The position numbers and the translations under genes were made by a program. Source: Nitrospirota bacterium (lineage in GTDB: Bacteria > Nitrospirota > Nitrospiria > 2-01-FULL-66-17). Taken from it: 64,000 nucleotides of DNA. The stretch covers positions 53,899 to 117,898 of the forward strand of contig JBFLXB010000003.1 of the NCBI GenBank assembly GCA_040757335.1. Reading direction: 5' to 3'. Numbering within the stretch: position 1 is the first letter of the stretch; each line of letters starts with the position of its first letter. Below, piece after piece: positions 5,474 to 46,833 of the stretch. The notes below the pieces were generated by a model. That model worked only from the letters and a program-made list of their open reading frames with translations. It had not been told where the DNA came from and did no database searches.

Positions 5474-8400
5474 CTAGGCGCGCGCTTCTTCGGAATGGGA
5501 GAGCGTTGAGACGGGTCTGGTGGAAGGCTGTGCGGCGTAGTCGCGGCCCAAGTACAGGTAGACGGCGGGCACGACGAACAGCGTGAATGCGGTCCCGATG
5601 GTCATGCCGGTCGCGATGACCAGGCCGATGGAAAAACGAGCGGCGGCGCCCGGGCCGGTCGCGATCAGCAGCGGGACCACCGCGAGGACCAGGGCCGCGG
5701 TGGTCATGAGCACCGGGCGCAAGCGGATGGCGGCGGCTTCTTCGATCGCTTCCCGTTTGGTTCGGCCTTGTTCCTGCAGTCGGTTGGCGAATTCCACGAT
5801 CAAGATGCCGTGTTTGCTGATCACGCCGATGAGCGTGACGAGGCCGACTTGGGTGTAGATGTTGATGGTGGTCAGTCCCAGGCTCACGAAGATCAATGCC
5901 CCGCAGATGGACATGGGCACCGTGACCAGCATAACCACGGGGTCTCGGAAGCTCTCGAACTGCGCCGCGAGTACGAGGTAGATGATAATCAGCGCGAAGA
6001 AGAACGTCAGCACCAAGGCCGCGCCCTCGGTCTTGAACTGACGCGACTGGCCCGCGTAGTCCACGGTGTAGCCCGGCGGCAGAACCTCCTTGGCCGCCTG
6101 TTCGAGCACGCCCAGCGCCTGGCCCAACGTCACGCCCGGTCGCGGTACGCCGGAGATCACCACGGCGTTGAGCTGCTGGAAGCGTTTGAGCTGTTGCGGT
6201 TCCACGGATTCGCGCAAAGTCACCAGCGTGGAGAGCGGCACCAGCTTGCCGGACCCGGTCCGCGTGTAGTACTCCGTGAGCTGGTCGGCGTTCAAACGAT
6301 CCGTGCGCTGGACCTGCGGAATGACCTTGTAGCTCCGGCTCTCCATCGAGAACCGATTGACGTACCCGCCCGACATCATGGCGGCCAGATCGCTCCCCAG
6401 TTGGCGCATATCGATCCCGAGCAGCGCGGCCTTGTCGCGATCCACCTCGATGTTGATGCGCGGTTTGTCGATCTTGAGGTCCGTGTCCAAGAAGATGAAC
6501 TTGCGGCTCTCGAACCCTCGTTGGAGAATGCCCCCGGCCACTTCGTTGAGCACCTGGACCGGCTGCGTGCTGGCGACCACGAACTCGACCGGAAACCCCG
6601 CGCCGCCCGTGGGCAGGGGCGGCGGGGCGAACACGGCATTCTGTAGCCCTGCGATCTGTCCCGCTTTCTGCTGCACGTCCTGGATGACGGGCTGGGTCTT
6701 CCGTTCGCGTTCGTCCCATGGTTTCATGACGATACCGGAGATCGCGGTGTTGGTCCCCACCGCTGATCCGCTCCCGCCCACGCCGTTCATCAAAAAGTAG
6801 TTCTCTTTCTCCGGAATGTTGTTCGCGATCGCGGTCAACTCGTTGGTGAACCGCGTGAGGTAATCGAGCGAGGAGTACGGATCGCTCTGCGAAAAGATCA
6901 ACATGAAGCCCTGATCCTCTTCCGGTGCCAGCTCCCGCGGCGAGGTCAGGTACAGGAAGTACGTGCTCGTCAGCACGATCACGCCGAACGCGGCGATGAC
7001 CTGTTTGTCGTTGAGCGCGCCGTGCAGGCGGCGCTGATACCCGTGTCGCAGTCGATCGAATTGCCGATCCAACCACTTCTCCAGGCGGCGCCCGCTGCTT
7101 TGGTCGCGCGAACGCAAGAGTCTGCTGCACATCATGGGCGAAAGCGTGAGCGCGATGACCCCGGAGAGCAGCACGGCGCCCGCCAGCGCAAACGCGAACT
7201 CCACGAACAACGTCCCGGTCATGCCGCCGATGAAGCCGATCGGCAGGTACACCGCGACCAGCGTGATGGTCATGGCGATCACGGGCAGGCCCAACTCGCG
7301 CGCGCCCTTGATGGCGGCGTCGAACGGCCTCATGCCGGCCTCGATGTGGCGATGGATGTTCTCCAGCACGATGATGGCGTCGTCCACCACCATGCCGATG
7401 GCCAGCACCATCGCCAACAACGTGAGCAGGTTGATGGAAAAGCCCATCACCCACATCAGGAACAATGCGCCGATGATGGACAACGGCACCGTGACCGCGG
7501 GAATGATCACGGATCGCAGCGAGCCCAGGAATAGAAAGATCACCACGATCACGATAATGACCGCTTCGGCGAGCGTGATGACGACCTCGTTGATGGCGTT
7601 GCGGATGTAGCGCGTGCTGTCGTACGGGATGTTGGCTTGCAGGCCCTGCGGCAACTGCGCCAAGATGTCCGGCCACTCTTGGCGAACCCGAGCGACCACG
7701 TCCAGGGAGTTGGCGTCGGGAGCCACTTCGACCCCGATAAACGTTGCGCTTTGCCCGTTGAACGACACCTCGGTGCTGTATGTCTCGGCGCCCAATACCA
7801 CATCGGCCACGTCGCCGAGGCGCACGATCGCGTCACCCTCGGAGCGGATCACTAGATGACGAAATTCTTCCGCGGTCTGAAGGTCGGTGTCCGCTTTGAG
7901 GTCGACCGAGACCAACGCGCCCTTGGTGGCGCCCACCGCGGCCTGGACGTTGTTGGCTTGAAGCGCGGCCTGGACGTCGCTTGCGGTGAGGTTGAGCGCC
8001 GCCAGACGTTCCGGCTTGAGCCAGACGCGCATGGCAAAGGTCCGATCGCCGATGATGAGCGCGCGCTGCACGCCCGGCAACGTCGACAACCGGGGCTGGA
8101 TCACGCGCACCAGGTAATCCGTGATCTGATTGTTGTCGAGGATGTCGCTGTAGAAGCTCATGTACATCGCGGCGATCGTCTCACCCACCGACAGCTCGAC
8201 CACCGGGTCCTCGCTGCCCTCGGGCAGGTCGCGGCGGACCTTGTTGACTTTGGCGGCGATTTGGGTCAGCGCTTCGTTCGGATCGTAGTCCAGGCGAAGA
8301 TAGGCCTGGATCGAGCTCACGCCCGGGAGACTCGTGGACTGGATGTAGTCGATGCCTTGTGCACTCGCGATTTCCCGCTCGAGCGGCGTGGTGATGAACC

Positions 8401-8581
8401 CCTGGATCAACTCCGCGTCCGCCCCGACAAAGGTCGTTGCGACCGTGACCACCGCGTTTTTCATTTCGGGGTACTGGCGGACGTTCAACTCGGTCCAGGC
8501 GCGCAGGCCGAGCAATAGGATCATGAGGCTCACCACCGCGGCCAGTACGGGTCGCCGAATGAAGATGTCCGTGAAGTTCAT
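5474..8581 (-). CDS. RND efflux transporter permease (AcrB/HAE1 family)
   Basis: 1035 aa with 12 TM segments and two large periplasmic loops. N-terminus MNFTDIFIRRPVLAAVVSLMILLLG is the canonical AcrB start. Confidence 0.9.
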   Translation of the reverse strand: MNFTDIFIRRPVLAAVVSLMILLLGLRAWTELNVRQYPEMKNAVVTVATTFVGADAELIQGFITTPLEREIASAQGIDYIQSTSLPGVSSIQAYLRLDYDPNEALTQIAAKVNKVRRDLPEGSEDPVVELSVGETIAAMYMSFYSDILDNNQITDYLVRVIQPRLSTLPGVQRALIIGDRTFAMRVWLKPERLAALNLTASDVQAALQANNVQAAVGATKGALVSVDLKADTDLQTAEEFRHLVIRSEGDAIVRLGDVADVVLGAETYSTEVSFNGQSATFIGVEVAPDANSLDVVARVRQEWPDILAQLPQGLQANIPYDSTRYIRNAINEVVITLAEAVIIVIVVIFLFLGSLRSVIIPAVTVPLSIIGALFLMWVMGFSINLLTLLAMVLAIGMVVDDAIIVLENIHRHIEAGMRPFDAAIKGARELGLPVIAMTITLVAVYLPIGFIGGMTGTLFVEFAFALAGAVLLSGVIALTLSPMMCSRLLRSRDQSSGRRLEKWLDRQFDRLRHGYQRRLHGALNDKQVIAAFGVIVLTSTYFLYLTSPRELAPEEDQGFMLIFSQSDPYSSLDYLTRFTNELTAIANNIPEKENYFLMNGVGGSGSAVGTNTAISGIVMKPWDERERKTQPVIQDVQQKAGQIAGLQNAVFAPPPLPTGGAGFPVEFVVASTQPVQVLNEVAGGILQRGFESRKFIFLDTDLKIDKPRINIEVDRDKAALLGIDMRQLGSDLAAMMSGGYVNRFSMESRSYKVIPQVQRTDRLNADQLTEYYTRTGSGKLVPLSTLVTLRESVEPQQLKRFQQLNAVVISGVPRPGVTLGQALGVLEQAAKEVLPPGYTVDYAGQSRQFKTEGAALVLTFFFALIIIYLVLAAQFESFRDPVVMLVTVPMSICGALIFVSLGLTTINIYTQVGLVTLIGVISKHGILIVEFANRLQEQGRTKREAIEEAAAIRLRPVLMTTAALVLAVVPLLIATGPGAAARFSIGLVIATGMTIGTAFTLFVVPAVYLYLGRDYAAQPSTRPVSTLSHSEEARA

Positions 8582-8631
8582 CGTATGTCTTGAAGGCCTT
8601 TGAGCTGGGAGAGCCTGTTCAAGGACAGGCT

Positions 8632-9801
8632 CTAGCTTTCAGGGGGGGAGGGATTCAATTTCGCGCCGGGTTCGACCGCATTGTTGATCACCACGGCCGC
8701 ACCGTTTCGCAGCTTGAGCAGCCCCGAGGTCGCGACGCGTTCGCCGGGTTGAATCCCCTCGAGCACCGCTACAAAGTCGCCTCGGGTGGGGCCGGTCTTG
8801 ATCAACCGTCGGTTCACCACCAACTGGGGCCCCTCGCTGTCGCCCGCTGCCTGCACGTCCCCTTGGGGGGCCTCTCCTGCGGTAGGCGGCGCTGCTTGCA
8901 CGATGTACACCGAGTTGCCGTAGGGGTTATAGCTGACCGCGGTTTGCGGGATCACCACGTAGCTCTCCGCGTTGGGCAGCGCGATGTGAATGCGCGCAAA
9001 GAGCCCGGGCTGGAGGCGGGTGCTCGCGTTGCGGAATGTGGCCTGGGCGTTGAAGTTGCGCGTATTTTCATCCACCCGCGGTTCAATCGCGGTGAGGCGT
9101 CCCTCAAAGCTGGCGTCGGGAAACGCATCGACGCTGGCGGCGACGGGCATCCCGACGGCCAGTATCCCCAGGCGTTGTTCGGGCAGGGCGAAGTTCACAT
9201 AAATCGGATCCAGCGACTGGAGGGTCACCAGCGGCGTGCCCGGGCTCACGTACTGTCCGAGGTTGGCCTGCCTGATCCCGAGCACCCCCGCAAACGGGGC
9301 GCGGATCGTCTTCTTGGCGATGAGGGCGCGCTGCGCCTCGACCCGGGCCGCAGCCTGGGCTGCTTCGCTTTCCAGTTTGTCGAACTGTGACTTGGCCATG
9401 ACCTCAGACCCGAACAGCTCTCGTCCGCGAGCCAACTCCGTCTCGGCCAGGTCTCTCTGCGCTTCCAGGGTTCGCAGCTCAGCCTGGTCCATCACGGAGT
9501 CGAGGGTAACCAAGATGGTGCCCTCGGTGGTGCGTTCTCCGGATTGAAACCGAATGGACTGAACCACACCGGCGACCTCGGCGCTGACCGCGATGCCGTT
9601 GACCGCGGTGACCGTGCCGACCGCGTCGATGGTGGCGGGCCATGTTTGCTCGAGAGCCTCGGTGACCGTGATCGCCACCGGCGGGATCGGCATGTTGTCG
9701 AAGAACTGGTTCATCATCTTGTTGCCGAACCACTTGAACCCGAAGATGGCGCCGAAGACCACGCCCGTCGACACCAACATGATGACCATTCGCTTGTTCA
9801 C
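8632..9801 (-). CDS. RND efflux periplasmic adaptor (membrane fusion protein)
   Basis: N-terminal TM anchor, then coiled-coil and beta-barrel/lipoyl motifs. Co-directional, 50 nt upstream of the RND permease. Confidence 0.85.
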   Translation of the reverse strand: MNKRMVIMLVSTGVVFGAIFGFKWFGNKMMNQFFDNMPIPPVAITVTEALEQTWPATIDAVGTVTAVNGIAVSAEVAGVVQSIRFQSGERTTEGTILVTLDSVMDQAELRTLEAQRDLAETELARGRELFGSEVMAKSQFDKLESEAAQAAARVEAQRALIAKKTIRAPFAGVLGIRQANLGQYVSPGTPLVTLQSLDPIYVNFALPEQRLGILAVGMPVAASVDAFPDASFEGRLTAIEPRVDENTRNFNAQATFRNASTRLQPGLFARIHIALPNAESYVVIPQTAVSYNPYGNSVYIVQAAPPTAGEAPQGDVQAAGDSEGPQLVVNRRLIKTGPTRGDFVAVLEGIQPGERVATSGLLKLRNGAAVVINNAVEPGAKLNPSPPES

Positions 9802-9946
9802 GATCGCGCCTCACCGCGAGTGGATTTGAATTGCGTCTCGTTCACGGCCTTTATACAACGTCTGGGCGGCTTGTTCCAGCGAGACAAATTCCCATCCAAA
9901 CGCATCGGAGAGCATTGGTCGGCGCGGGTTGACGCAGGGTGCGGGT

Positions 9947-10390
9947 TTAACTGTGCTTGAGGACCGCCGCCATCAGGATGGTGAGCACGCCGAGGACCAA
10001 CGTGGCTTCCTGATAGGGGAAGTGCTGAAGGGGCTTTTTGTCGCCGAGTTCCTTGAGGTGGAGGAGGTAGAACGTCAACAGGATCGTAAAAAAGAAAATC
10101 TTGAGCATCAGGGCGTTGAAGTAGAGGCTGTTGAACGTCCCCCGGTATTGTTTGGCGAAGTGAATGTTGATCCCGCCGGTCACCAGCAACAACGTCACGA
10201 ACGCGCCGGAGAGTTTCTGAAAGCGGCCGTGGATTTGGCGAAGGAACGCGCCGCGGACGTCTTTGTCCAGATGCTTTTCGGCCGCGGGCAACAGGACGAG
10301 ACTGGAAAAAATAACGCCGCCGATCCAAATGAACGCCGAAACCAGATGCACCCAGAAGTTGACGATCCGAAAGATTTGATCCGCTTCCAT
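9947..10390 (-). CDS. small 4-TM membrane protein, HemJ/CopD-superfamily-like
   Basis: 147 aa with four hydrophobic helices. First helix FWVHLVSAFIWIGG has the H-x6-W-x-G-G spacing of the HemJ (UPF0093) signature. Start is 1 nt from the stop of the radical SAM gene, so the two are translationally coupled. Confidence 0.4.
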   Translation of the reverse strand: MEADQIFRIVNFWVHLVSAFIWIGGVIFSSLVLLPAAEKHLDKDVRGAFLRQIHGRFQKLSGAFVTLLLVTGGINIHFAKQYRGTFNSLYFNALMLKIFFFTILLTFYLLHLKELGDKKPLQHFPYQEATLVLGVLTILMAAVLKHS

Positions 10391-10391
10391 G

Positions 10392-11720
10392 CTAGCCTTT
10401 GGGAATCAGCCCTTGAAATCGTCCTGCGTCGAACACCGGGGTTTCGTTGCCGAACGTGCGTTTTCGCAAAGCTTCCATGAGCTCCGGCGTGATCATGGCG
10501 ACGCCTTGCTCCCGGCCAAACTTCTCCACGCGTTGCTTGACCATCTTTTGGAGGAAGAAGGGCAGCCGATGGAGGCGTTCCATCGCGGCCTCGCTCCACG
10601 GGGGCGGCGGACCGTCAAAGCTGTCGGTTAAGGGCTGGATCTTGGGTCCGCCCTTCGGGGTGTAATGGCACCACAGGTCCTCATCCAGGTAGTCCCCGTG
10701 TGAGGCGAATGGGCGCGCGCGGCAGCCGCCGCACAACTCGCCGTACTCGCAATCTCCGCACTTCCCCTTGAGCTTCGGCGCGCGCAGGTCGGCGAAGACC
10801 GGCGAGTTGTGCCACAGCGCTTCGAATCCCGATTGCCGCAGGTTGCCGACCGACAGCGGCATGAACGGGCAAGGCGTAAGGTCGCCCTCCGGCGTAATCC
10901 GTGCGTAATGCGTACCGGCCAAACATCCGCCGCCCTCGTAACCCTGGGCCTTGGTGATGGGTGACTCGGGATTCTTTTCGTAGGCGATGCGCTTGAAGTG
11001 CGGGGCGCAGCGCGAGCGCACCAGCATGCCGGGAAATTTGGTTTGAACGTCGAGCAGGTACCCGAGCACCTGCTCGTATTGCTCGGGGGTGATGTCGGAC
11101 ATTTCTTCGCCGCGCCCGGTGCACACGAGGAAGAACAGGTTGTAGACGCGAGCCCCCGCGCGATGGGCGAATTCCATGATCCTGGGGATTTCGTCGTAGT
11201 TCATGGAACTCGCCGTGGTATGAACCTGGAACTGCAGGCCGTTGCGGCGGCAGGCTTCGATCCCCGCGAGCGAGCCCTTGAGCGCGCCGGGCAGGCGGCG
11301 GAAGGCGTCGTGGTTGTGTTCGTCGAGCGAATCCACGGAAATCGAGACGCCCATGACCCCGGCGTCCAGCAGCTCCCGGATTTTGGCGTCGGTAAGCAGG
11401 GTGCCGTTGGTTCCCACCACGACCATCATGCCTTTGGTCGTGGCGTAGCGCGCGATCTGCGGAATATCGCGCCGCAGCAGCGGCTCGCCGCCCGTGAGGA
11501 CGAGGATCGACGCCGGGTTGACGGCCGCCATCTCGTCGACCACGCGGTAGCATTCCTCGGTCGTCAGTTCGTCGATCGAGCCCGCGTCGCGCTCACCGGC
11601 CGAGAGATAGCAATGCGCGCAACGCAGATTACAGCGTTTGGTCAGGTTCCAGGCGATCAGGAAGGGTTTGAAGTCTTCCTGTCGGGGAGTCAGGAGTGGG
11701 AGGTCTAAGTCGGTCGTCAC
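10392..11720 (-). CDS. radical SAM / SPASM-domain enzyme with a C-terminal PCP_red-like (protochlorophyllide reductase subunit B C-terminal) domain
   Basis: CNLRCAHCY is a CxxxCxxC motif. Auxiliary-cluster Cys motifs follow (GGCLAGTHYARITPEGDLTPCPF and CGDCEYGELCGGCRAR). C-terminal WSEAAMERLHRLPFFLQKMVKQRVEKFGREQGVAMITPELMEA resembles the PCP_red domain. Confidence 0.8.
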   Translation of the reverse strand: MTTDLDLPLLTPRQEDFKPFLIAWNLTKRCNLRCAHCYLSAGERDAGSIDELTTEECYRVVDEMAAVNPASILVLTGGEPLLRRDIPQIARYATTKGMMVVVGTNGTLLTDAKIRELLDAGVMGVSISVDSLDEHNHDAFRRLPGALKGSLAGIEACRRNGLQFQVHTTASSMNYDEIPRIMEFAHRAGARVYNLFFLVCTGRGEEMSDITPEQYEQVLGYLLDVQTKFPGMLVRSRCAPHFKRIAYEKNPESPITKAQGYEGGGCLAGTHYARITPEGDLTPCPFMPLSVGNLRQSGFEALWHNSPVFADLRAPKLKGKCGDCEYGELCGGCRARPFASHGDYLDEDLWCHYTPKGGPKIQPLTDSFDGPPPPWSEAAMERLHRLPFFLQKMVKQRVEKFGREQGVAMITPELMEALRKRTFGNETPVFDAGRFQGLIPKG

Positions 11721-11750
11721 GACGATCGGTAACTTGACGGGCCGTAGAGC

Positions 11751-11883
11751 CCGTTCAGGGACGCGTCAGACGCAAGGCGCCGCGAGCACCGGACCTGTAG
11801 GGGCGTATTGCAATACACCCCTACAGAAACGTGAGCACCGGATGCGCAGCGGCAACGCAGCAGATGACCGTTCATGGACGGGC
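11751..11883. repeat. interspersed ~118-bp TIR-bearing repeat, copy A (minus orientation). Its central segment is replaced by a near-perfect 35-bp palindrome at 11792-11826
   Basis: Aligns to the copies at 22667, 39388, 42273 and 52036 (cccgttcagg...gcaaggcg...cgcagcggcaacgcagcagatgaccgttcatggacggg). Supplies the stop codon of the upstream USP gene. Confidence 0.8.
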
Positions 11884-13911
11884 AACGGGTTCGGCCTTCT
11901 TGGGCATGAACTTCGCCAGGATCTCTTCCATCTTGGCGGGATTCTTCATCGCCTCTTCCATCGCGGCCTTCGCTTTTTCGATGCCCTCGTTGCAGATCTC
12001 CAGCGTGATGGCGCGCACGCCATGTTCACGAGCGTGGGTCTCGACCATGCCCTTGGTGCAATCGCGCATGTAGCCGGCCGGAACCCGCTCGATTCGTTGG
12101 ACCGCGTCCCGGGTCCACTCGAACTCGGGAGGCGGCGCGGCCAGCTTTTCTTCCGCGTCGCCGGCCAGCAACTCGTCTTTCCAGCTCACCTCGGAGGCGT
12201 ATTCCATGATGACCTTGCTGGCAAACTCGGTGGTGATCGTCTTGAGCCCCATCTTGCGGGCGGACTTGTCGATGATCGCCTTGGCGCGTCGCCGCATGTA
12301 TCCGGACGGCACCGCTTTGAGCCGCTCCTTGGCTTCGGCGGTCCACTGGATCACCACGTCGTCGTACGCGATTTCCACTTCGACGTTGCCTTCGGCCTTG
12401 GCCGCGGCCACGATGATGGATTTGTCGATGAGTTTGAACTTGGAGCCGTCGGCCGGACAGATCGGGCATTTGACCGGCTGGCCGCCTTTCGCCAGATACC
12501 CGCAATCGCTGCACACCCAGTAGTCCAACTCGCGGCGCTCTTCGTAGCTCAAGATTTTCTGGCCCGCACTTGCCGCGGCCGTGTCGCCCATCAGCCCCAT
12601 GATCTGCGCGCCCTGGGCGCCCATCAGGTCCTTCACCACCTCGTCGCTGGCTTCCATCTTGTTGCGGTCGACGCCCGCAGCGTCCAGCGTTTTCCCAAGC
12701 CCCTTCATCGCGGCCACGGCATCCGGCGGCAGGAGGTGCCCCATCGCCGCGTCCACGACTTCGTTGGAAATGATGGTATGGCCCTTCTCGATCGCGTAGC
12801 GGTAAATCGCGGTCCGGGCCACGCCGCGCGCGAAGACCGGGACCTTTTCCATGCGCTTGGCGGCTTCCTCGGTCCACGCGATCGTATACTGGGCCATGGT
12901 GTCGATCGGCGGTACGTAGGTGCGGTTGGAAATCAGGATGTTGCAGCCCGCCAGGCGCATGAGGTTCTCGGAGTTGCTTCCGATGTCCATGGTGTCGTCG
13001 GAGTGCACGCCGATGCGGCCCATCACCAGCAGCCACGGCTTGTTCTTCTTCACGTACTGCAGGCAGCGCTCGAACGCCTTGCCGTCGAGCAGCGTGGTCT
13101 TGAGCTCCATGCCTTCGGCCTGCGCGACTTGTTTCCCGATGTCCAGGTGCGCCTGGTAGATCTTGGCCAGGCCGGAGTCGATGATCTCTTCGTGCAGCTT
13201 CTCCTGCTCCTTGAACCGGAACACCTTACCGGCTTCTTCGGAGAGCACGTCCGCGATGCTGTTGAACATCGCGTAATGGAAGTAGGGGTCGAACGCCGAG
13301 ATGGCCTCGACCGGCACGTTGAGGGCTTTGCCCAACGCCAGGGCGGTCATCAAACCGCCGTAGGAATGGCCGCTGCCGTCGAGCGCGCACACGATCGGAC
13401 CGTCGGGCTCGATGGCCTTGGGGTTCTTCACGATGAAGAAGTCCGAGTCGTGGACCCGGCGGACCGTGCGCTCCACCACGCTCCCGATCACGCTGTCGCG
13501 GACCGCGCCCACGCCCAGGGCGCCCATGATTACCAAGTCGTATTTGTGGGTCTTGATGTCTTCGACCAGCACTTGGAAATTTTTCCCCTCCAGGAAGCGG
13601 CGCTCGAACCCCACGTTCGCGCTCTTGCACTGCTGATCCACCACGTCCAAATAACAATCGGTGATGATCTCCAGACCGCGGGTGATCAGCGAGTCGTGAA
13701 TGCGGCGTTGCCGCTCCAGCTCCTTTTCGTCGTGGTACTCCTCGGGCAGGCCGGCCTCCATCTGCTTGAACCGTTTGTCGTGCATCTTCGCCGCGTAGGC
13801 GTGACTGCCGACCACGGTGGCGCCGAACTGTTGGGCGAGTTTGACCGCGAGTTCAATGGCGCGGTTGGAATGATCCGAATTGTCGACGGGAACGTAAATC
13901 GTCTTGTACAT
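11872..13911 (-). CDS. multidomain protein: UspA - UspA - PCP_red-like - zinc-ribbon (rubredoxin-like) - PCP_red-like - PCP_red-like
   Basis: Two universal-stress-protein domains with an ATP motif (GALGVGAVRDSVIGSVVERT). CSDCGY...CPICP forms a CxxC...CxxC zinc ribbon. Three repeats W-T-x-E/D-A-x-x-R-hxxVP-x-G/F...R beginning WTEEAAKRMEKVPVFARG, WTAEAKERLKAVPSGYMR and WTRDAVQRIERVPAGYMR. Confidence 0.75.
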   Translation of the reverse strand: MYKTIYVPVDNSDHSNRAIELAVKLAQQFGATVVGSHAYAAKMHDKRFKQMEAGLPEEYHDEKELERQRRIHDSLITRGLEIITDCYLDVVDQQCKSANVGFERRFLEGKNFQVLVEDIKTHKYDLVIMGALGVGAVRDSVIGSVVERTVRRVHDSDFFIVKNPKAIEPDGPIVCALDGSGHSYGGLMTALALGKALNVPVEAISAFDPYFHYAMFNSIADVLSEEAGKVFRFKEQEKLHEEIIDSGLAKIYQAHLDIGKQVAQAEGMELKTTLLDGKAFERCLQYVKKNKPWLLVMGRIGVHSDDTMDIGSNSENLMRLAGCNILISNRTYVPPIDTMAQYTIAWTEEAAKRMEKVPVFARGVARTAIYRYAIEKGHTIISNEVVDAAMGHLLPPDAVAAMKGLGKTLDAAGVDRNKMEASDEVVKDLMGAQGAQIMGLMGDTAAASAGQKILSYEERRELDYWVCSDCGYLAKGGQPVKCPICPADGSKFKLIDKSIIVAAAKAEGNVEVEIAYDDVVIQWTAEAKERLKAVPSGYMRRRAKAIIDKSARKMGLKTITTEFASKVIMEYASEVSWKDELLAGDAEEKLAAPPPEFEWTRDAVQRIERVPAGYMRDCTKGMVETHAREHGVRAITLEICNEGIEKAKAAMEEAMKNPAKMEEILAKFMPKKAEPVARP

Positions 13912-14004
13912 CAGGACTCTCCTCTATGACGCATCCAGCGACCGCACGTAGTGTCCGGGTAGGTGACGCCTGGGACCACCCAGGATGGTGTGCGAAAACG
14001 GCCC

Positions 14005-14033
14005 ATTATAGTCCGAGGGGGCGGCGTTTGCAA
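14005..14033 (-). promoter_or_regulatory. sigma70-like promoter (TTGCAA-N17-TATAAT on the minus strand) driving the USP/PCP_red gene
   Basis: Reverse complement of 14005-14033 reads ttgcaa acgccgccccctcggac tataat. Located 95-120 nt upstream of the ATG at 13911, with an AGGAGAG Shine-Dalgarno sequence in between. Confidence 0.5.
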
Positions 14034-14060
14034 CGATTTGGACACCACGGCACCCATTCC

Positions 14061-14906
14061 TTACGCGGACGACGGGGTCGTGCGGGGGCGGGCAGCCCGC
14101 AGCCGGCGGCGTTTTGGCGAGAACGCGGCGGCGACGAAAAACAGCGCGGTGGCCAGGAGCACGATCGTGGCGCCGGACGGGACGTCGAACTGATACGAGA
14201 TGAGCACGCCGCCCACTGAAGACCCCACCCCGAGCGCCACCGCGAACGCCATCATACCCAGCATGGTGCGTCCCATCTGATACGCAGCGGCCGCTGGGAT
14301 GACGATCATCGCGAACACCAGCAGGGCGCCCACGGTTTTGAGCGACACGACCACGGTCAGCGCGATCAGGTTCAGCAAGAGGAAAAACAGTCGCTTGGAC
14401 GCGATCCCGGTGGCTTCGGCCATCTCGGGGTCGAAGGTGATGAAGTGAAACTCCTTGTAGAACAGCGCGACCAGCGTCAGCACGCCGCCCGCCAACCACA
14501 ACATCGCCGTCAAGTCTCCCCGCGTGACGGAGAGCACGCTTCCGAACAGGAAACCGTAGACTTCGGCGTTGTACGTGCCCATGAGGCCGAGAAACAGCAC
14601 GGCGAGCGCCATGGTGAAGGTGTAGAAGATCCCGATGGAGACGTCGAGTTTCATGATTCCGCGCTGATACAGCGCGTGGACGATCCAGACGGTTCCCAAT
14701 CCGAAGATGATCGCCATTGCGAACGGCGACACTCCGATCAGGTATCCGAACGTCACGCCTGCGAACGCCGCGTGGGACGTCCCGGCGCCGATAAACGACA
14801 GTCCTCTTAGGACCACGAAGACTCCGATCACTGCGCAGAGCGCACCGATGATCACCGAGGCGGCCAGGGCTCGCTGCATGAAGCCAAGGGAGAGCAGTTC
14901 ATGCAT
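14061..14906 (-). CDS. znuB: zinc/manganese ABC transporter permease
   Basis: 281-aa multi-TM protein of the ZnuB/MntB family. Overlaps the znuC stop by 8 nt. Confidence 0.8.
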   Translation of the reverse strand: MHELLSLGFMQRALAASVIIGALCAVIGVFVVLRGLSFIGAGTSHAAFAGVTFGYLIGVSPFAMAIIFGLGTVWIVHALYQRGIMKLDVSIGIFYTFTMALAVLFLGLMGTYNAEVYGFLFGSVLSVTRGDLTAMLWLAGGVLTLVALFYKEFHFITFDPEMAEATGIASKRLFFLLLNLIALTVVVSLKTVGALLVFAMIVIPAAAAYQMGRTMLGMMAFAVALGVGSSVGGVLISYQFDVPSGATIVLLATALFFVAAAFSPKRRRLRAARPRTTPSSA

Positions 14907-15687
14907 GGTGGTCCCCCACGATCACATAAGGCGCGGCGCCGTGGTTGGTGACCACGATTTCCTTCCCGTACACTTGGGCGAGGGTCTCGCGCCGCAGGAC
15001 GTCGGCGGGCGCGCCGGCGGCGAGCAGTCGTGTCTTAAGCAGCAGCAACCGATCAGCCGCTCCGCTGATGAGGTTGATGTCGTGGGTGACGAACAGGATG
15101 GTGAGCCGCAGGTCGCGGTGCAGCTTGGAGATCAACTCCATGATGGCGTGCTGGGTCGGCGCATCGATTCCGGTGGTGGGTTCGTCGAGGAGCAGAATCT
15201 CGGGGCGTTGCGCGAGTGCCCGCGCGATCATGACGCGCTGCTGCTGGCCGCCCGACAACTCCCCCACGGCCGCGCGCGCCAGCGGAACCAGGTCCACGGC
15301 GGCCAGCGCTTGGTTCACGATCTGTCGGTCGGCCCGCCCCGGGTAGCGGAACAATCCGATGGTGCTGTACCGCCCCATCATCACGGCCTCGGCCACGGTG
15401 AGGGGAAAGTGGGGATCGAGATGCTCCGTCTGTGGAAGATATCCGATGCGAGCACGGTGTTCGCACCGAAGGCGGTCGCAGGCGCAGTCGAAGACGCGCA
15501 CCGACCCGGAAGCGGGCGAGACTAAGCCCAGGATCGCCTTGAGGAACGTGGTCTTGCCGGACCCGTTGGGCCCGATCACGCCGATAAACTCTCCGGCGCG
15601 GACCCCGAGGGTCACGTCTTCAAGCGCGAGCCGGTCGCGATAATAGATCGTGGCGTGGTCGAAGGTGATGACGTCCGCGGCGGTCAC
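14899..15687 (-). CDS. znuC: zinc/manganese ABC transporter ATP-binding protein
   Basis: Walker A GPNGSGKTT, ABC signature LSGGQQQRV and Walker B ILLLDEPT. Confidence 0.85.
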   Translation of the reverse strand: MTAADVITFDHATIYYRDRLALEDVTLGVRAGEFIGVIGPNGSGKTTFLKAILGLVSPASGSVRVFDCACDRLRCEHRARIGYLPQTEHLDPHFPLTVAEAVMMGRYSTIGLFRYPGRADRQIVNQALAAVDLVPLARAAVGELSGGQQQRVMIARALAQRPEILLLDEPTTGIDAPTQHAIMELISKLHRDLRLTILFVTHDINLISGAADRLLLLKTRLLAAGAPADVLRRETLAQVYGKEIVVTNHGAAPYVIVGDHHA

Positions 15688-16613
15688 CGCAGGGCCTCCA
15701 GCAGCGTGGCCGCATTGTACCGCATCATGGACAGATAGTCGTCCGTGCCGGGAAGGGCCCCGGGCAGGGGCGTGAGCACGACCACCTTGGCTCCGGTCTC
15801 CTGCGCGAGGGCTTCCGGAATTTTGGGCGAGAGTTGCGGTTCGGAAACGATCACCCGGATCTGCTCTTTCTTGATGACGCGGACCAGCCCTGCAAGGCGC
15901 TTGGCCGAGGGCTCCGACCCGATCTGCGTGAAAATTTCGGCGCGGATGCGCAGGTCCAACCGTCTGGCGAAATACGGCCAGGCCGCGTGGTGCGTGACGA
16001 TCTTGCGGTTGGGGATGGACGCGAATTGAGCGACCAGGCTTCGCTCCAAGTCGTCGAGCTGCTTGAGGTAGGCGGCCTGGTTCGCGAGGTAGGCCTTGCG
16101 GTGGGCGGGGTCTGCTTTGATCAAGCCGTCCGTGACGTGGCGGACCATGATCTGGGCGTTCTCAGGGTCCAGCCACACATGAGGGTTTCCGCCGCTCCGG
16201 CGTTCTTCGGCGCGCGACAGCCCCTGCTTCTCGTCGCCGTGACCGTGTGGCTCCTCCCCCCGCATCAGGGCGATGCCCTTGGACGTGTCCACCACGATGA
16301 GCCGGGGATTCTCGGCGTTATTGATCAGCCCATTGACCCAGACCTCGAGACCGAGGCCCACTTTGACTAGGACCGCGGCCTGGCGCACGGCTTCGACGTC
16401 GCTCGGTTTCGGCGTGTAGGTGTGTTCGCTCTCGAGCCCGGTGATGAGGCTTCGGACGCTGACATGCTCCCCTCCGACCGCCCGCACGAAATCCGCGAGG
16501 ACCGGGAGCGTCGCGACCACCGGCAGCGACTCCGCAAACGCGCTGGGTCCGGCGATGATGGCGGCGACGGGGATCGCGAGGACCAGGCGCCGCAACGCGG
16601 CCCGGTTCACGTG
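15684..16613 (-). CDS. znuA: metal ABC transporter substrate-binding protein (ZnuA-like) with a His/acidic-rich loop
   Basis: Cluster A-I SBP. His-rich loop EEPHGHGDEKQGLSRAEE. Start placed at a GTG (VNRAALRRLVLAIP, signal-peptide-like); the upstream part of the ORF is Arg-rich GC-shadow sequence. Confidence 0.65.
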   Translation of the reverse strand, partial: HVNRAALRRLVLAIPVAAIIAGPSAFAESLPVVATLPVLADFVRAVGGEHVSVRSLITGLESEHTYTPKPSDVEAVRQAAVLVKVGLGLEVWVNGLINNAENPRLIVVDTSKGIALMRGEEPHGHGDEKQGLSRAEERRSGGNPHVWLDPENAQIMVRHVTDGLIKADPAHRKAYLANQAAYLKQLDDLERSLVAQFASIPNRKIVTHHAAWPYFARRLDLRIRAEIFTQIGSEPSAKRLAGLVRVIKKEQIRVIVSEPQLSPKIPEALAQETGAKVVVLTPLPGALPGTDDYLSMMRYNAATLLEALR

Positions 16614-17071
16614 GGGGGCTCGACGCGCGTGAGGAGGATGGTGTTCTCGATATCGTTGTCCACGAACTCGGTGGGCCGCACGCCCAGGGCGGCGGTATGC
16701 GGCATGCGGATCTTGAGTTTGTCTCTTCGCGCGAACTCCGCGATCGCCCGGATGGTGACGGTCTTTCCCTCGGTGACGGCGTCGAGGTCGAGCCACACCG
16801 GATCGTGCGAGCGGTCGAAGCGATAGCGGTACGGCAGGTTCGCCGCGCCGATCGTCATGGTCCCGGAGCCGTCGTCGTTGAAGGTAAACGTGACTTGGTT
16901 GTCAGTTGCGCGATTCGACCACGTGCCGACCAGGGTCGGCGCGAACACCCGGGGGTAGACCCACAAGGCAACCGCGGCCGCCACAACCACGCCGACCCAC
17001 ACCCACGGTCGCCGGCTCCGAGGAGGTGCAGGCAGGCCCGCGCCTTCGCTGGTTTGCGCGACGTCTTCCAT
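16607..17071 (-). CDS. hypothetical exported or membrane-anchored protein
   Basis: N-terminal hydrophobic segment WVWVGVVVAAAVALWVY. No recognisable domain. Confidence 0.4.
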   Translation of the reverse strand: MEDVAQTSEGAGLPAPPRSRRPWVWVGVVVAAAVALWVYPRVFAPTLVGTWSNRATDNQVTFTFNDDGSGTMTIGAANLPYRYRFDRSHDPVWLDLDAVTEGKTVTIRAIAEFARRDKLKIRMPHTAALGVRPTEFVDNDIENTILLTRVEPPT

Positions 17072-21364: not shown

Positions 21365-22666
21365 ATGATTGACACGGTGTTGGTGTTTCTGGTTGTCCTG
21401 GGGTTTTTAATCTTCGTCCACGAGCTGGGCCATTTTCTGGTTGCGCGCTGGACGGGGGTGCGCGTGTTGCGCTTCTCGCTCGGCTTCGGTCCCAAGATCT
21501 ACAGCCGGCAGGTGGGCGACACCGAATACATGATTTCGGCGATTCCGCTGGGGGGATACGTCAAAATGGCGGGCGACGACCCCACGCAGGAGACTCCCAA
21601 ACAACCGGACGAGTTCTCCGCCCGCACCTTGGGAGAACGCACGCGCATCGTTCTCGCCGGTCCCGTGATGAACATCTTGGTCGCGTTCCTGTTGATGCCC
21701 GTGGTGTACCTGATCGGGACCCAGGTTCCGGCCTTCTTGGAACAGCCGCCGGTCGTGGGGTGGGTGGAAGAGGACTCTCCTGCGCAGACCGCGGAGTTTG
21801 AAGCCGGGGACCGGATCGTGTCCATCGGCGGAACCGACGTACCCACGTGGGAGGCTGCGGTTTCCCAACTCGTGCGCAACCCCGAACAGGCGGTGGACGT
21901 CGTGGTGGAGCGCGGCGATCAGCGACTCACCTTGCCGATCACCGTGCCCGCGCAGTTCGAGAAGGGCGCAGGCACGCTGGGATTCCTCCCGGAGAAACCG
22001 CCGGTGGTGGGGATGGTCAGCCCCGGCATGCCCGCGGCCGTGGCTGGGCTCAAGCCGGGCGATGAAATCGTCTCGCTCAACGGCGAGCCGATTCATAACT
22101 GGTATCAGATGTCCGCCGCGATCCAGAAGAACCAAGGTACCCAGATGACACTGGGGTACCGGCGCGACGGCGTCGAGTCCACGGTGGAACTTACTCCCGC
22201 CATGGACGACGTCTCTGATCGGTGGGTCATCGGGATCGGGGGGAAAGACGCGACGCTGGTGCGCCAGTACGGGTTCGGCGAAGCCGTGGTCAAGGGCACG
22301 GAAAAGATGTGGGAGCTCACCGGCCTCACGTTCCAAGTGCTCGGACAGCTGTTCACGGGGAATCTGTCGATCAAGGCGTTGGGCGGCCCGATCATGATCG
22401 CGCAGGTCACGGGTGAGGCCGCGGACTCCGGGTTTACCGACGTGATACGGCTGGTGGCCTTCATCAGCCTTCAACTGGGCATCATGAACCTATTGCCCAT
22501 CCCGGTGCTGGATGGTGGGTGGCTGGTGTTTTTCTTGATCGAGGCGATCCTGGGACACCCGCTGAATCGCCGCGGGTTGGAGATCGCCCAAACAGTGGGG
22601 ATGGTATTGCTAATCACTCTCGCACTGGTCGTGTCGTATAACGACATAATGAGGATTATTGGGTAA
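21365..22666 (+). CDS. rseP: RIP zinc metalloprotease RseP (site-2 protease) with PDZ domains
   Basis: HELGHFLVARW HExxH motif in TM1, two PDZ domains, and a C-terminal LDGG motif. Confidence 0.85.
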   Translation: MIDTVLVFLVVLGFLIFVHELGHFLVARWTGVRVLRFSLGFGPKIYSRQVGDTEYMISAIPLGGYVKMAGDDPTQETPKQPDEFSARTLGERTRIVLAGPVMNILVAFLLMPVVYLIGTQVPAFLEQPPVVGWVEEDSPAQTAEFEAGDRIVSIGGTDVPTWEAAVSQLVRNPEQAVDVVVERGDQRLTLPITVPAQFEKGAGTLGFLPEKPPVVGMVSPGMPAAVAGLKPGDEIVSLNGEPIHNWYQMSAAIQKNQGTQMTLGYRRDGVESTVELTPAMDDVSDRWVIGIGGKDATLVRQYGFGEAVVKGTEKMWELTGLTFQVLGQLFTGNLSIKALGGPIMIAQVTGEAADSGFTDVIRLVAFISLQLGIMNLLPIPVLDGGWLVFFLIEAILGHPLNRRGLEIAQTVGMVLLITLALVVSYNDIMRIIG

Positions 22667-22784
22667 GCCTGTCCATGAACGGCCATCTGCTGCGTTGCCG
22701 CTGCGCTTCCGGTGCTCACGTACAACTCAGTACGCTGCGCTCCGGTTCTCGCGGCGCCTTGCATCTGACCGTTCCTGAACAGGC
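22667..22784. repeat. interspersed ~118-bp TIR-bearing repeat, copy B (plus orientation)
   Basis: gcctgtccatgaacgg...ccgttcctgaacaggc form 16-bp terminal inverted repeats. The internal sequence aligns to the other copies. Confidence 0.8.
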
Positions 22785-22799
22785 TAAGGGCCAACGTCA

Positions 22800-23903
22800 G
22801 TGAACATCGTGAGGCGCAAGACCAGACAAATTCACGTCGGCAATGTCGCCATCGGCGGGGATGCGCCGATTTCGGTGCAGTCCATGACCACGACCGAGAC
22901 GTGGCAGATCGACAAGACCGTGGCGCAGATCGCGGAGCTGGAGCGCGCCGGGTGCGAGATCGTGCGGGTGGCGGTGCCGGACGTGCCCTCGGCCGAAGCG
23001 CTGCCGGAGATTCGCCGGCAGACCGCGCTGCCGCTGATCGCGGACGTGCACTTCGACTACAAGCTCGGGCTCAAGGCCCTGGACGCGGGGGTGGATTGCC
23101 TGCGCATCAACCCCGGGAACATCGGGGATCGCGACAAGGTCGAACGGGTGGTGAAGGCCGCCAAGGAGCGGCGCACGCCGATCCGCATCGGCGTGAACGC
23201 GGGCTCACTCGAGCGCGAATTGCTCGACAAGTACGGCTATCCCACTCCGGATGCGATGGTGGAGTCGGCGCTGGCGCACATCCGCATCCTCGAGGAGCTC
23301 GACTTTCACGACATCAAGGTCTCGCTCAAAGCCTCGAACGTGGGTCTCGCGGTCGCCGCGTATCGCGCGTTCTCCCTGGTCAGCGACTACCCGCTGCACC
23401 TGGGCATTACCGAAGCGGGCACGACGTTCTCCGGCGGCATCAAGTCCGCGGCCGGGTTGAGCATTCTCTTGGCCCAGGGGATCGGCGATACGATTCGCGT
23501 GTCGCTCGCAGCCGATCCGGTCGAAGAAGTCAAAACCGGGTTCGAGATTCTGAAAGCGCTCGAGCTCCGGCGGCGCGGCGTCAACGTGGTGGCCTGCCCC
23601 ACCTGCGGGCGGCTGGAGATCGACGTGATCCGCATGGCCAATGAGGTCGAGCGTCGTCTCGCACACGTCAAGGAACCGTTGACCGTGTCGATCCTCGGCT
23701 GCGTGGTGAACGGGATCGGTGAAGGCAAGGAAGCGGACATCGGCATCGCGGGCGGCCGCGGCGTCGGCTTGCTGTTCAAACACGGCGAGATCGTACGCAA
23801 GGTGCCGGAGTCCGAGCTGTTCGAGGTGCTGCTCAAAGAAATCGACGCCATGCTGGCGGAACGCGGAGAGCCGCAGCCCGCCAGCCTGCCTCTTCATTCG
23901 TAG
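22800..23903 (+). CDS. ispG: 4-hydroxy-3-methylbut-2-enyl diphosphate synthase
   Basis: GcpE family, with [18 protein letters not shown] and the C-terminal CPTCGR...GCVVNG [4Fe-4S] ligands. Confidence 0.9.
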
Positions 23904-45189: not shown

Positions 45190-45737
45190 CGCTCAAGGAA
45201 CTTTTCGATAAGGCGGTGATGACCGAGATCTTGGACGGCTTGAAGACCACGTTCAAGCACATGTTCGTGAAGCCCGTGACCTTCCAGTATCCGCACGAGA
45301 AACGCGAGATACCCGACACGCATCGGGGCGCGCTGTGCCTGTTGCGGTACGACGACGGCAAGGAACGCTGCGTGGGCTGCGATCTCTGCGAGGCGGCCTG
45401 CCCCTCGCGCTGTATCAAAGTCGTGAGCGAAGAGGACCCCGAGACCCCGCTGCGCCGGATCGCGACGGAATTTTATATCGACATCACCAAGTGCGTGTTT
45501 TGTGGGTTCTGCGTGGAGGCGTGCCCGGTCAATGCGCTCGGCATGACCAAGATGTACGAGTACTCCACGACGAATAAGCGCGATTTGATGTTCGACAAGG
45601 CTCGGCTCTACCAGATCGGCGATCAGTTGCTCGCCGACGCCAAGAAGTACCTCGTTGCGCACCACCAGGAAGAGAGCGACGAGGCCGCCCGCCAGTACCG
45701 CTACAAGTTCCCCTACGCCACCGCCAGGAAGGGCTGA
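45186..45737 (+). CDS. nuoI: NADH-quinone oxidoreductase subunit I (2x[4Fe-4S] ferredoxin)
   Basis: CVGCDLCEAACP and CVFCGFCVEACP. ATGA overlap with nuoG. Confidence 0.85.
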   Translation: MTLKELFDKAVMTEILDGLKTTFKHMFVKPVTFQYPHEKREIPDTHRGALCLLRYDDGKERCVGCDLCEAACPSRCIKVVSEEDPETPLRRIATEFYIDITKCVFCGFCVEACPVNALGMTKMYEYSTTNKRDLMFDKARLYQIGDQLLADAKKYLVAHHQEESDEAARQYRYKFPYATARKG

Positions 45738-45745
45738 TTGGGCGG

Positions 45746-46683: not shown

Positions 46684-46717
46684 GACCGACCTCCGTCAAT
46701 CCCGGAAATCCCCCCAT

Positions 46718-46804: not shown

Positions 46805-46833
46805 TGAGGGGGGATTTGGTTTTAAAACCTAGC

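Follow-up and report, generated by a model that had tools for sequence, protein, structure and literature searches.

An AhbD-like radical SAM enzyme with a PCP_red tail and its uncharacterized partners: a candidate module for completing heme synthesis in Nitrospirota and other bacteria

Why should a non-phototrophic bacterium carry, on two adjacent proteins, four copies of PCP_red (Pfam PF08369), the C-terminal domain of the protochlorophyllide reductase subunit BchB/ChlB? This question is raised by three genes in a 64,000-nt stretch of a Nitrospirota genome (contig JBFLXB010000003.1, positions 53,899 to 117,898; hereafter the window). They encode a 679-aa protein with tandem universal stress protein (USP) domains and three PCP_red repeats, a 442-aa radical S-adenosylmethionine (SAM) protein (rSAM) with a SPASM domain and a C-terminal PCP_red, and a 147-aa protein with four transmembrane helices (4-TM). 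Open reading frame (ORF) calling placed all three co-directionally on the minus strand, at the coordinates given in a preliminary description of this sequence (Table 1), and the rSAM stop codon lies 1 nt from the 4-TM start codon (TAG-C-ATG), as described there. We consider it rather probable that the three genes form one conserved module that serves in the last stage of heme synthesis, in which the rSAM would act as an AhbD-type decarboxylase.

AhbD (EC 1.3.98.6) acts on Fe-coproporphyrin III, in which two propionates become vinyl groups through oxidative decarboxylation without O2, and needs an electron donor for its SAM cluster as well as an unidentified acceptor for the substrate-derived electrons (PMC10114771). 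Pfam recognized Radical_SAM (E = 6.7e-27), SPASM (E = 1.6e-9) and PCP_red (residues 375-419, E = 1.3e-14, 54.4 bits against a gathering threshold of 32.5 bits) in the 442-aa protein, and C30, C34 and C37 of its CxxxCxxC motif were invariant across 76 homologs. The top NCBIfam match was the AhbD heme b synthase (TIGR04545, 337.8 bits), with residues 21-355 aligned onto positions 1-339 of the 339-position model. NirJ2 came second (324 bits), NirJ (190 bits), AhbC (181 bits) and NirJ1 (within 178-190 bits) matched much less well, and the best non-tetrapyrrole family among the matches listed was the GeoRSP rSAM (157 bits). No likeness to HemN beyond the rSAM core was found in the NCBIfam search. 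In the Methanosarcina enzyme, the full AhbD SPASM motif described by Fix et al., C-X20-33-C-X17-C-X36-37-C-X2-C-X5-C-X2-C-X17-35-C, binds two auxiliary [4Fe-4S] clusters (PMC10452713). The eight SPASM cysteines of the window rSAM fit this motif exactly (X27, X17, X36, X2, X5, X2 and X17), which implies that two auxiliary clusters are to be expected here as well. NirJ differs in having the motif C-X2-C-X5-C-X20-21-C (PMC10114771), whereas the window enzyme has the AhbD form with an extra C-X2-C. These results agree with the earlier assignment of the enzyme, from its CxxxCxxC motif and SPASM cysteines, to the class of the tetrapyrrole-modifying enzymes. It is closest to AhbD heme b synthase, and its catalytic core probably performs a known type of reaction.

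A structural model of the rSAM, built by AlphaFold with 76 homologs, had a mean pLDDT of 90 and a pTM of 0.88, and the PCP_red tail was modeled with a pLDDT of 84-96. When the model was compared with the PDB by Foldseek, the nearest entries were the generic SPASM enzymes SkfB, PqqE, SuiB and anSME, which modify proteins or ribosomally synthesized peptides, because the structure of AhbD is unsolved; the comparison was uninformative on the tail. A search of solved structures by sequence likewise returned no AhbD structure, only generic rSAM matches. Members of the family are annotated by NCBI as 'radical SAM protein' and, in some cases, by the automatic JGI pipeline as 'AdoMet-dependent heme synthase'.

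The tail apparently marks a distinct, single-origin subfamily of rSAMs, almost all of which have a PCP_red at the C-terminus. In a search of 1.8 billion representative proteins, relatives down to ~40% identity still aligned through residue ~420 of the rSAM, and the domain was present in 24 of 31 sampled relatives. Scanning with a local PCP_red hidden Markov model (HMM) found one copy in 75 of 84 family members and two or three in seven. Extra repeats fused to the enzyme gave four copies in P0241 and three each in P0242 and P0245, and the sole NirD/AsnC-type fusion seen, P0355, is a distant relative (35% identity) with no PCP_red match. In a neighbor-joining tree of the catalytic core, which is a distance tree without support values, 28 tail-bearing sequences formed one clade with only two tail-less members, and 46 tail-less AhbD/NirJ2-like proteins fell outside it. 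The nearest families of the window enzyme are the tetrapyrrole enzymes AhbD and NirJ2, and the tail-less AhbD-like relatives lack the extension that the preliminary description had singled out. The nearest homologs of both large window proteins belong to uncultured Nitrospirota of the class Nitrospiria, with 90-97% identity to metagenomic sequences and ~61-63% to the genus Nitrospira.

Conservation of the gene arrangement was examined in 80 loci from a scan of one genome per species, with taxon labels taken from the deposited records of metagenome-assembled genomes. Neighboring genes were collected by simple ORF calling in GC-rich DNA, searches with the window proteins, neighbor clustering and the local PCP_red HMM, and only clusters found across loci were used. 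The genes were kept together across several phyla. In Nitrospirota (37 loci) the USP-PCP_red gene was directly upstream of the rSAM gene in 32, the rest being mostly short of flanking sequence, and the 4-TM gene adjoined the rSAM gene in 35. Among 17 loci from Alpha-, Gamma- and unclassified Proteobacteria, a gene for two USP domains followed by two to five PCP_red repeats was directly upstream or overlapping in most, and the 4-TM gene occurred in none. All 15 poribacterial loci had the 4-TM gene directly upstream of the rSAM gene, and nine of them a USP-USP-PCP-ribbon-PCP-PCP gene 3.6-5.5 kb upstream; genes for an Mrp/ApbC-type Fe-S ATPase and for two small proteins with a single PCP_red each lay between or after the module genes. 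The rSAM of anammox bacteria and other Planctomycetota (six loci) was 583-696 aa long with extra PCP_red repeats fused on, and Anammoxibacter had a USP-USP-PCP_red gene upstream as well. At the single zetaproteobacterial locus, a stand-alone protein of four PCP_red repeats followed the rSAM. Common to these arrangements is thus an AhbD-like rSAM that bears one PCP_red, with several further PCP_red domains in cis or in trans. Because these domains shift between the two genes, the USP-PCP_red protein and the rSAM appear to work together.

Independent support for a tetrapyrrole link came from the Proteobacteria, where a gene for a HemY-type porphyrinogen oxidase (465-490 aa) directly followed the rSAM gene in 16 of 17 loci, mostly with a 4-nt overlap. 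The product matched TIGR00562 at 254 bits against a cut-off of 98, and its nearest PDB entries were protoporphyrinogen oxidases. The 4-TM gene stood beside the rSAM gene in 50 loci and the HemY gene in 16, and both together in none. The HemY adjacency strengthens the tetrapyrrole link proposed earlier, and none of the three refuting conditions named in the preliminary description was borne out: the PCP_red HMM matches are strong in both proteins, the nearest rSAM families are tetrapyrrole enzymes, and the genes co-occur across phyla. No ahbA, ahbB or ahbC gene was found among the annotated conserved neighbor clusters, as has been reported for AhbD in coproporphyrin-pathway organisms.

The soluble partner was resolved by Pfam into two Usp domains (PF00582, E = 6.9e-29, 101.6 bits), three PCP_red repeats (E = 3.1e-33, 114 bits) and a rubredoxin-like ribbon (RUBY_RBDX, PF21349) whose match was marginal (27.1 bits against a cut-off of 26.5). 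Two UspA domains, a CxxC...CxxC ribbon and a total of four PCP_red-like domains over the two adjacent proteins had all been proposed before, and both the profile matches and the residue positions agree. NCBIfam BchB models matched the same regions as Pfam PCP_red in both proteins. All four window repeats have clear homology to the BchB/ChlB C-terminal domain and to stand-alone PCP_red proteins (PDB 2L09 and 2KRU), but they are carried by an rSAM and a USP protein of a non-phototroph, in multiple copies and without a nitrogenase-like domain. In published DPOR structures, the C-terminal helical domain of BchB helps to enclose the tetrapyrrole substrate. Each USP domain contains the ATP-type motif G-x2-G-x9-G-S (residues 130 and 298), as do the ATP-binding tandem USPs UspFG and MJ0577, and is predicted to bind a nucleotide; the USP module also weakly matched the ATP-binding USP structure 1WJG. 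Unlike UspFG and MJ0577, the window protein has its USP domains joined to a rubredoxin-like ribbon and three PCP_red domains and its gene linked to an rSAM gene, and its Nitrospira marina counterpart is constitutively abundant instead of stress-induced. Aligned end to end, the protein shares 61% identity with its Nitrospira orthologue at locus L001, and homologs with the same architecture are widespread in Nitrospirota. The ribbon was kept in Nitrospirota and Poribacteria and absent from proteobacterial orthologues. A role of the USP protein as a substitute ferrochelatase was judged unlikely, as ordinary ferrochelatases occur in Nitrospirae (PMC8529089) and the ribbon, of an iron-binding type, is not kept in all orthologues.

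Hydropathy and the AlphaFold model agreed on four hydrophobic helices in the 147-aa protein, as the preliminary description had it. Its assignment to a family is less direct. The spacing H15-x6-W22-x-G24-G25 that had been read as the mark of a HemJ-type protoporphyrinogen oxidase is indeed present in helix 1, but the Pfam scan gave no match to HemJ (PF03653) and only sub-threshold matches to CopD (PF05425, 25.6 against 32.1 bits) and DUF4149 (23.5 against 24.6 bits). The NCBIfam CopD model (NF033808) scored 39 bits against a cut-off of 195 and was covered at positions 144-245 of 295. When 27 homologs were scanned singly, CopD was matched by 25, DUF4149 by 18, the PuuD urate oxidase membrane domain (Urate_ox_N) by 12, and DUF2269 and HemJ by 10 each, all weakly and mostly below curated thresholds (best HemJ E = 2e-4). 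Because the same proteins match CopD better, the H-x6-W-x-G-G spacing is best taken as a feature of the helix-bundle superfamily and not of HemJ. An alignment of the 27 homologs showed invariant H15, P35, T71-G72, Y90 and K97, and the window protein was 26% identical to its Nitrospira counterpart (E = 6e-19). It thus shares with HemJ and CopD the small helical membrane fold, the helix 1 motif and an invariant histidine, but has four helices only, stays below every family cut-off and has no CopC-like gene in the window neighborhood. By homology it can be assigned to the CopD/HemJ superfamily and not to HemJ, and no function can be read from this. A profile search for the family in other contexts returned only Nitrospirota- and Poribacteria-type proteins, and the family seems restricted to these two groups. 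Because of the tight coupling to the rSAM and the mutual exclusion with HemY, whose place beside the rSAM the 4-TM gene takes in Nitrospirota and Poribacteria, a redox role in the rSAM pathway is our most economical guess.

If the module serves the last stage of heme synthesis, the most likely substrate of the rSAM would be Fe-coproporphyrin III (coproheme). Its propionates would be turned into vinyl groups with loss of CO2, yielding heme b without O2, and the electrons would leave through the two auxiliary [4Fe-4S] clusters of the SPASM domain. The soluble partner would bring two to five more PCP_red domains, in the window on a tandem ATP-binding-type USP module. These domains may hold or cap the tetrapyrrole as in BchB, or may dock partner proteins, and the USP module could add nucleotide-dependent control. 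The 4-TM protein would be a lineage-specific third partner, possibly a heme- or metal-binding redox protein that serves as the electron acceptor or as a porphyrinogen oxidase. We infer that the module proteins may form a physical complex. Precedents for such use of the enzyme are known: AhbD homologs have been described as anaerobic coproheme decarboxylases in organisms without other Ahb enzymes (PMC13564367, PMC10114771) and are thought to stand in for ChdC in some coproporphyrin-pathway organisms (PMC13564367).

Expression of the module could be followed in the proteome data set of N. marina (PMC8115632), in which about half of the proteome was detected and absences are weak evidence. In this organism, genes for adenosylhomocysteinase, methionine adenosyltransferase, a 699-aa 'UspA family' protein and a 460-aa 'radical SAM ... 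SPASM' protein are consecutive, the order seen at loci L001 and L005. The 699-aa protein had ~119 spectral counts on average, equal to the two SAM-cycle enzymes, and the 460-aa rSAM ~33. Both were abundant at atmospheric and low O2 and neither was increased at low O2 (rSAM ~0.63-fold, not significant); the so-called 'stress protein' is therefore made constitutively and in abundance, and the module does not serve as an anaerobic back-up. At least three further PCP_red proteins are expressed, one of them encoded beside an Mrp-type ATPase gene. The HemE and HemY genes are adjacent to each other elsewhere in the genome, and no protein named coproporphyrinogen oxidase was among the detected half of the proteome.

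Several observations weigh against an AhbD-type role in heme synthesis. The rSAM score of 337.8 bits is below the NCBI equivalog cut-off of 500 for AhbD, though the alignment spans the whole model, and its clade stands apart from the tail-less AhbD-like proteins, so the substrate could differ. To our knowledge, direct evidence of tetrapyrrole binding by PCP_red is confined to BchB. Neither a ferrochelatase nor any other late heme gene is present in the window. N. marina expresses an abundant 235-aa protein of the 'chlorite dismutase' family that might be ChdC. Bit scores place the proteobacterial HemY nearer to the protoporphyrinogen oxidase of Myxococcus (218 bits) than to the coproporphyrinogen oxidase of Bacillus (173 bits), a similarity that would fit a protoporphyrin-type route at least as well. 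At loci L002 and L003, where the rSAM is ~70% identical, there was no USP or 4-TM gene within 8 kb; a hemerythrin-domain gene followed the rSAM in place of the 4-TM gene (L002 9326-9757, L003 1820-2251), and then a V-type ATPase operon. Finally, at some loci the module adjoins a bd-like oxidase/cytochrome c/EB_dh operon, a context that could point to a dedicated rather than a general role.

This last context leads to the alternative that survives best, which we nevertheless consider unlikely: the rSAM, its PCP_red partners and the CopD-like protein would make or insert a special heme (or heme and copper) for 'bd-like oxidase' or NXR-type complexes of nitrite oxidizers and anammox bacteria, and not bulk heme b. 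At about 10 of the 80 loci, from five lineages, the rSAM gene with or without the USP gene closes an operon for a Cyt_bd_oxida_I-like protein, c-type cytochromes and EB_dh. It stands directly after such genes in Thermodesulfovibrionales (L046 2167-9260), Deltaproteobacteria (L078 1661-7992), Alphaproteobacteria (L042 553-10693 and L073 9278-15915) and Anammoxibacter (L059 2095-10157). These operons contain a homolog of cytochrome bd-like subunit I, one or two c-type cytochromes and a ~540-aa heme b protein of the EB_dh/DMSO-reductase type, and are of the kind discussed as 'bd-like oxidase' clusters for Nitrospira and anammox bacteria. A dedicated role would also agree with the SCO1/SenC-like cluster c35 after HemY in L042, named by sequence appearance only, with the NarG-like molybdoenzyme and NarJ-like chaperone genes upstream in L058, with the concentration of the family in Nitrospira, Nitrospina, anammox bacteria and their relatives, and with the likeness of the third protein to CopD, a family tied to copper handling. 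However, the window, most Nitrospirota loci and the poribacterial loci are without such neighbors. The HemY adjacency, together with the exact AhbD motif, speaks for ordinary heme chemistry, and in N. marina the proteins are made constitutively and reach the abundance of housekeeping enzymes.

The direction of the HemY similarity bears on a second alternative, to which we give an even lower probability. Here the rSAM would act on an earlier, metal-free substrate and turn coproporphyrinogen III by decarboxylation into protoporphyrinogen IX, as HemN/CgdH does, and an oxidase would then produce protoporphyrin IX: HemY in Proteobacteria, and the HemJ-like 4-TM protein in Nitrospirota and Poribacteria. 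The order rSAM-HemY with overlapping codons would represent consecutive steps of the protoporphyrin route, the similarity of HemY to the Myxococcus enzyme would be explained, and so would the mutual exclusion of 4-TM and HemY genes, the weak PF03653 matches of 10 of the 27 4-TM homologs and the lack of a detected N. marina protein named coproporphyrinogen oxidase. On the other hand, homology to AhbD indicates an iron-complex substrate, with a proposed electron path via the substrate iron (PMC10114771), and the similarity to HemN is limited to the rSAM core. N. marina has HemY besides the 4-TM gene and does not need the latter as sole oxidase, and the bit-score gaps between HemY subtypes are not a functional test.

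It is very unlikely that the rSAM is a SPASM maturase of peptides or proteins unrelated to tetrapyrroles, with PCP_red for peptide or protein recognition and the USP protein as substrate or regulator. Its model is indeed nearest to SkfB, PqqE, SuiB and anSME, with the AhbD structure unsolved, and many of the weaker NCBIfam matches are peptide maturases. However, GeoRSP, the best of the non-tetrapyrrole families listed, reached 157 bits, far below the 338 and 324 bits of the tetrapyrrole families. The cysteines are spaced as in AhbD, the proteobacterial rSAM and HemY genes are translationally coupled, and no precursor-like conserved small gene was found beside the rSAM among the neighbor clusters (ORFs of at least 60 aa). 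Least credible of all is a metal-homeostasis unit of the CopD-like protein (9947-10390), the rubredoxin-like USP protein, a resistance-nodulation-division (RND) efflux pair (HlyD_D23/AcrB, 5474-9801) and ZnuA/C/B (14061-16796), all on the same strand, which is effectively refuted by the unconserved adjacency of the RND (three loci) and Znu genes (no other locus), the persistence of the rSAM-USP pairing in quite different neighborhoods and the missing ribbon in Proteobacteria.

Having weighed these alternatives, we return to the AhbD-type reading and its relation to known systems. The module rSAM shares with AhbD the CxxxCxxC core, the eight-cysteine SPASM spacing, the best HMM match over the whole model and the lack of ahbA/B/C neighbors. 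It differs in its score (338 against a cut-off of 500), in its separate clade, in the C-terminal PCP_red of ~45 residues plus linker and in the extra PCP_red domains on a partner or fused to it (L002 and L003 being without a USP gene nearby). It is also distributed differently, mainly among Nitrospirota, Poribacteria, anammox bacteria and some Proteobacteria instead of methanogens, sulfate reducers or Gram-positives, and its activity is a prediction. With NirJ, NirJ2 and AhbC, the enzymes of heme d1 and siroheme-dependent heme synthesis, it shares the rSAM/SPASM subfamily that acts on side chains of iron tetrapyrroles, but no nir or ahb genes are nearby. No description of the domain combination was found in a literature search that reached few subscription journals, which agrees with the earlier view of an uncharacterized system. 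However, because the catalytic core is probably AhbD-like, the module is a variant and not a wholly new system. What is new is an AhbD-like enzyme with an extra domain, whose partners, the USP-PCP_red protein and a membrane protein of the CopD/HemJ superfamily, are uncharacterized.

A more far-reaching version of this reading can be formulated, although it is doubtful as a whole. PCP_red would be a general module for handling tetrapyrroles (or for docking Fe-S ATPases), and the trio a self-contained, undescribed O2-independent end of the heme pathway. The 4-TM protein would take the place of HemY as a new membrane coproporphyrinogen (or protoporphyrinogen) oxidase, the tailed rSAM would be the decarboxylase, and the USP-PCP_red protein an ATP-gated carrier of coproheme to the enzyme and of heme b to the heme proteins of nitrite oxidizers and anammox bacteria. 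The further PCP_red proteins of N. marina and the recurrent pairing with Mrp at L004 and in Poribacteria would fit a wider trafficking system based on PCP_red. Mrp/ApbC ATPases are of the same P-loop class as BchL and NifH. A gene for an Mrp/ApbC (NUBPL-type) Fe-S P-loop ATPase adjoins a small multi-PCP_red gene at L004 (4300-6014), L052 (5860-7298) and L072 (4922-6344), and the same pairing is seen at N. marina IMG genes 2597410652/2597410653, so that it recurs in three lineages; PCP_red proteins may work with this ATPase family. At L004, a heme-oxygenase-like 'Haem_oxygenas_2' gene is located between two PCP_red genes.

Other recurrent neighbors were specific to single groups. In 22 loci of the genus Nitrospira (L009-L038 and others, e.g. 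L019 3090-5501), two same-strand genes directly upstream of the USP gene encode a UbiE/MenG-type methyltransferase and a B12-binding radical SAM protein akin to slr0320 of cyanobacteria (445 bits, below the cut-off of 775), a pair that is possibly quinone-related. Genes for SAM synthetase and S-adenosylhomocysteinase were divergent and just upstream of USP-rSAM in eight loci of marine-type Nitrospirales (L001 2693-5338; L005 2473-5105), a SAM-cycle link to the SAM-consuming rSAM. In 12-15 poribacterial loci (L052 9343-10651 and equivalents) the operon was extended 3′ of the rSAM by three genes, whose products are a 137-aa protein with a weak PCP_red at its end, one of 130-160 aa without a Pfam match and a ~140-aa HEAT-repeat protein with an N-terminal CxxC...CxxC ribbon. 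An aminotransferase near some loci was considered as HemL and rejected as an AptA-type omega-aminotransferase, and the Nitrospina neighbors considered as hem genes were type IV pilus genes or had no match.

In the window itself, the genes flanking the trio do not belong to the module. The RND pair that the preliminary description had added to the group is co-directional with it, but is adjacent in only three loci, including L028 (9790-15375), which reflects the shared ancestry of close relatives and not a functional link; Znu genes were beside the module in no locus other than the window. Because neither adjacency is conserved, both are neighbors by accident. A tblastn search of the window with the conserved neighbor families (bd-like oxidase, EB_dh, cytochromes c, HemY, SCO1, Mrp and others) found none of them. 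The rest of the window holds housekeeping genes, including those for prolyl-tRNA synthetase, complex I subunits, ComEC and TrkH, none of them heme-related. There is also a candidate undecaprenyl-pyrophosphate synthase-like gene with adjoining isoprenoid/phospholipid genes, named by sequence appearance only. A complex I run on the plus strand (42415-53658) encodes three antiporter subunits of the Proton_antipo_M type beside a NuoG-like subunit of 924 aa, with an extra overlapping ORF (50194-51996) that has no Pfam match. An extra NuoM copy in Nitrospira genomes has been reported (PMC8115632).

Of the near-consensus sigma70 promoter claimed earlier for the USP-PCP_red gene, the site stands with 10 of 12 matches. 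This site, TTGCAA-17-TATAAT, is the sole one of its kind in 9700-14200, where ~0.9 are expected by chance, and is suggestive by its position alone. In relatives, the USP and rSAM genes overlap or stand within ~100 nt, and the 151-nt gap in the window arises because a copy of a palindromic intergenic repeat occupies the spacer. The hairpin in this spacer was considered as a regulator or terminator and rejected: it is not an intrinsic terminator, as it has no T-run, and it belongs to one of three window copies of the repeat. An Rfam scan of 9700-14200 gave nothing real, with no riboswitch or known RNA within the spacers. The repeat is ~110-130 nt long, and its copies lie at 11721-11871 (-), ~22692-22720 (+) and ~52040-52160 (+); conserved arms GCGTTGCCGCTGCGCATCCGGTGCTCACG ... 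TCCGGTGCTCGCGGCGCCTTGC bracket a variable central hairpin. All three are between co-directional genes, namely USP/rSAM, the ORFs 21365-22666 and 22800-23903, and complex I genes, where the third copy spans the gap from 50447-52036 to 52192-53658 between two Proton_antipo_M-type antiporter-subunit genes. The repeat looks like an element of the REP/MITE type (repetitive extragenic palindrome/miniature inverted-repeat transposable element).

Table 1. Features of the module locus, in window coordinates
Feature	Position	Strand	Basis or remark
USP-PCP_red gene, 679 aa: USP - USP - PCP_red - zinc ribbon - PCP_red - PCP_red	11872..13911	-	ORF, Pfam, motifs
Tandem USP domains PF00582, residues ~1-165 and 170-330	12922..13911	-	Pfam, ATP motif
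PCP_red repeat 1, residues 346-390	12742..12876	-	Aligns with BchB C-terminus in solved DPOR structures
Zinc ribbon, rubredoxin-like, C465xxC468...C483xxC486	12454..12519	-	PF21349, sequence
PCP_red repeat 2, residues 523-568	12208..12345	-	Pfam, sequence
PCP_red repeat 3, residues 599-644	11980..12117	-	Pfam, sequence
rSAM gene, 442 aa, GTG start: AhbD-like radical SAM/SPASM with C-terminal PCP_red	10392..11720	-	ORF, Pfam, NCBIfam, motif, model, tree
Radical SAM core, residues 25-185, C30-x3-C34-x2-C37	11166..11648	-	Pfam, sequence
SPASM region, cysteines 238, 266, 284, 321, 324, 330, 333, 351	10668..11009	-	AhbD-type spacing
PCP_red domain of rSAM, residues 375-419	10464..10598	-	Pfam, E = 1.3e-14
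4-TM gene, 147 aa, membrane protein of CopD/DUF4149/HemJ superfamily	9947..10390	-	ORF, sub-threshold HMMs, hydropathy, AlphaFold
Promoter-like site TTGCAA-17 nt-TATAAT	14005..14033	-	10/12 matches; within 149-nt spacer 5′ of USP-PCP_red gene
USP/rSAM spacer, 151 nt, filled by palindromic intergenic repeat copy	11721..11871	-	Sequence reading; folding z = -3.1
Hairpin, 14 bp, in USP/rSAM spacer	11795-11826		Flanked by 13-nt direct repeats 11781-11793 and 11830-11842
HlyD-type membrane-fusion protein (HlyD_D23)	8632-9801	-	Co-directional, 3′ of trio
AcrB-type RND pump	5474-8581	-	Co-directional, 3′ of trio
ZnuA/ZnuC/ZnuB-type metal ABC importer, complete	14061-16796	-	Ends 149 nt 5′ of USP gene

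Global nitrite turnover depends on Nitrospira, Nitrospina and anammox bacteria. These organisms are rich in heme proteins, and the literature searched holds no description of the end of their heme synthesis, for which the module is a concrete candidate. It spans Nitrospirota, Poribacteria, Planctomycetota including anammox bacteria, Nitrospinaceae and several proteobacterial classes, and is highly expressed in the one proteome checked, under the mere names of 'radical SAM protein', 'universal stress protein' and 'hypothetical protein'. It provides the first strong genomic context for PCP_red outside chlorophyll synthesis. How AhbD-type enzymes receive their substrate and to what they pass their electrons are open questions (PMC10114771), and the module may also offer a set of partners for them.

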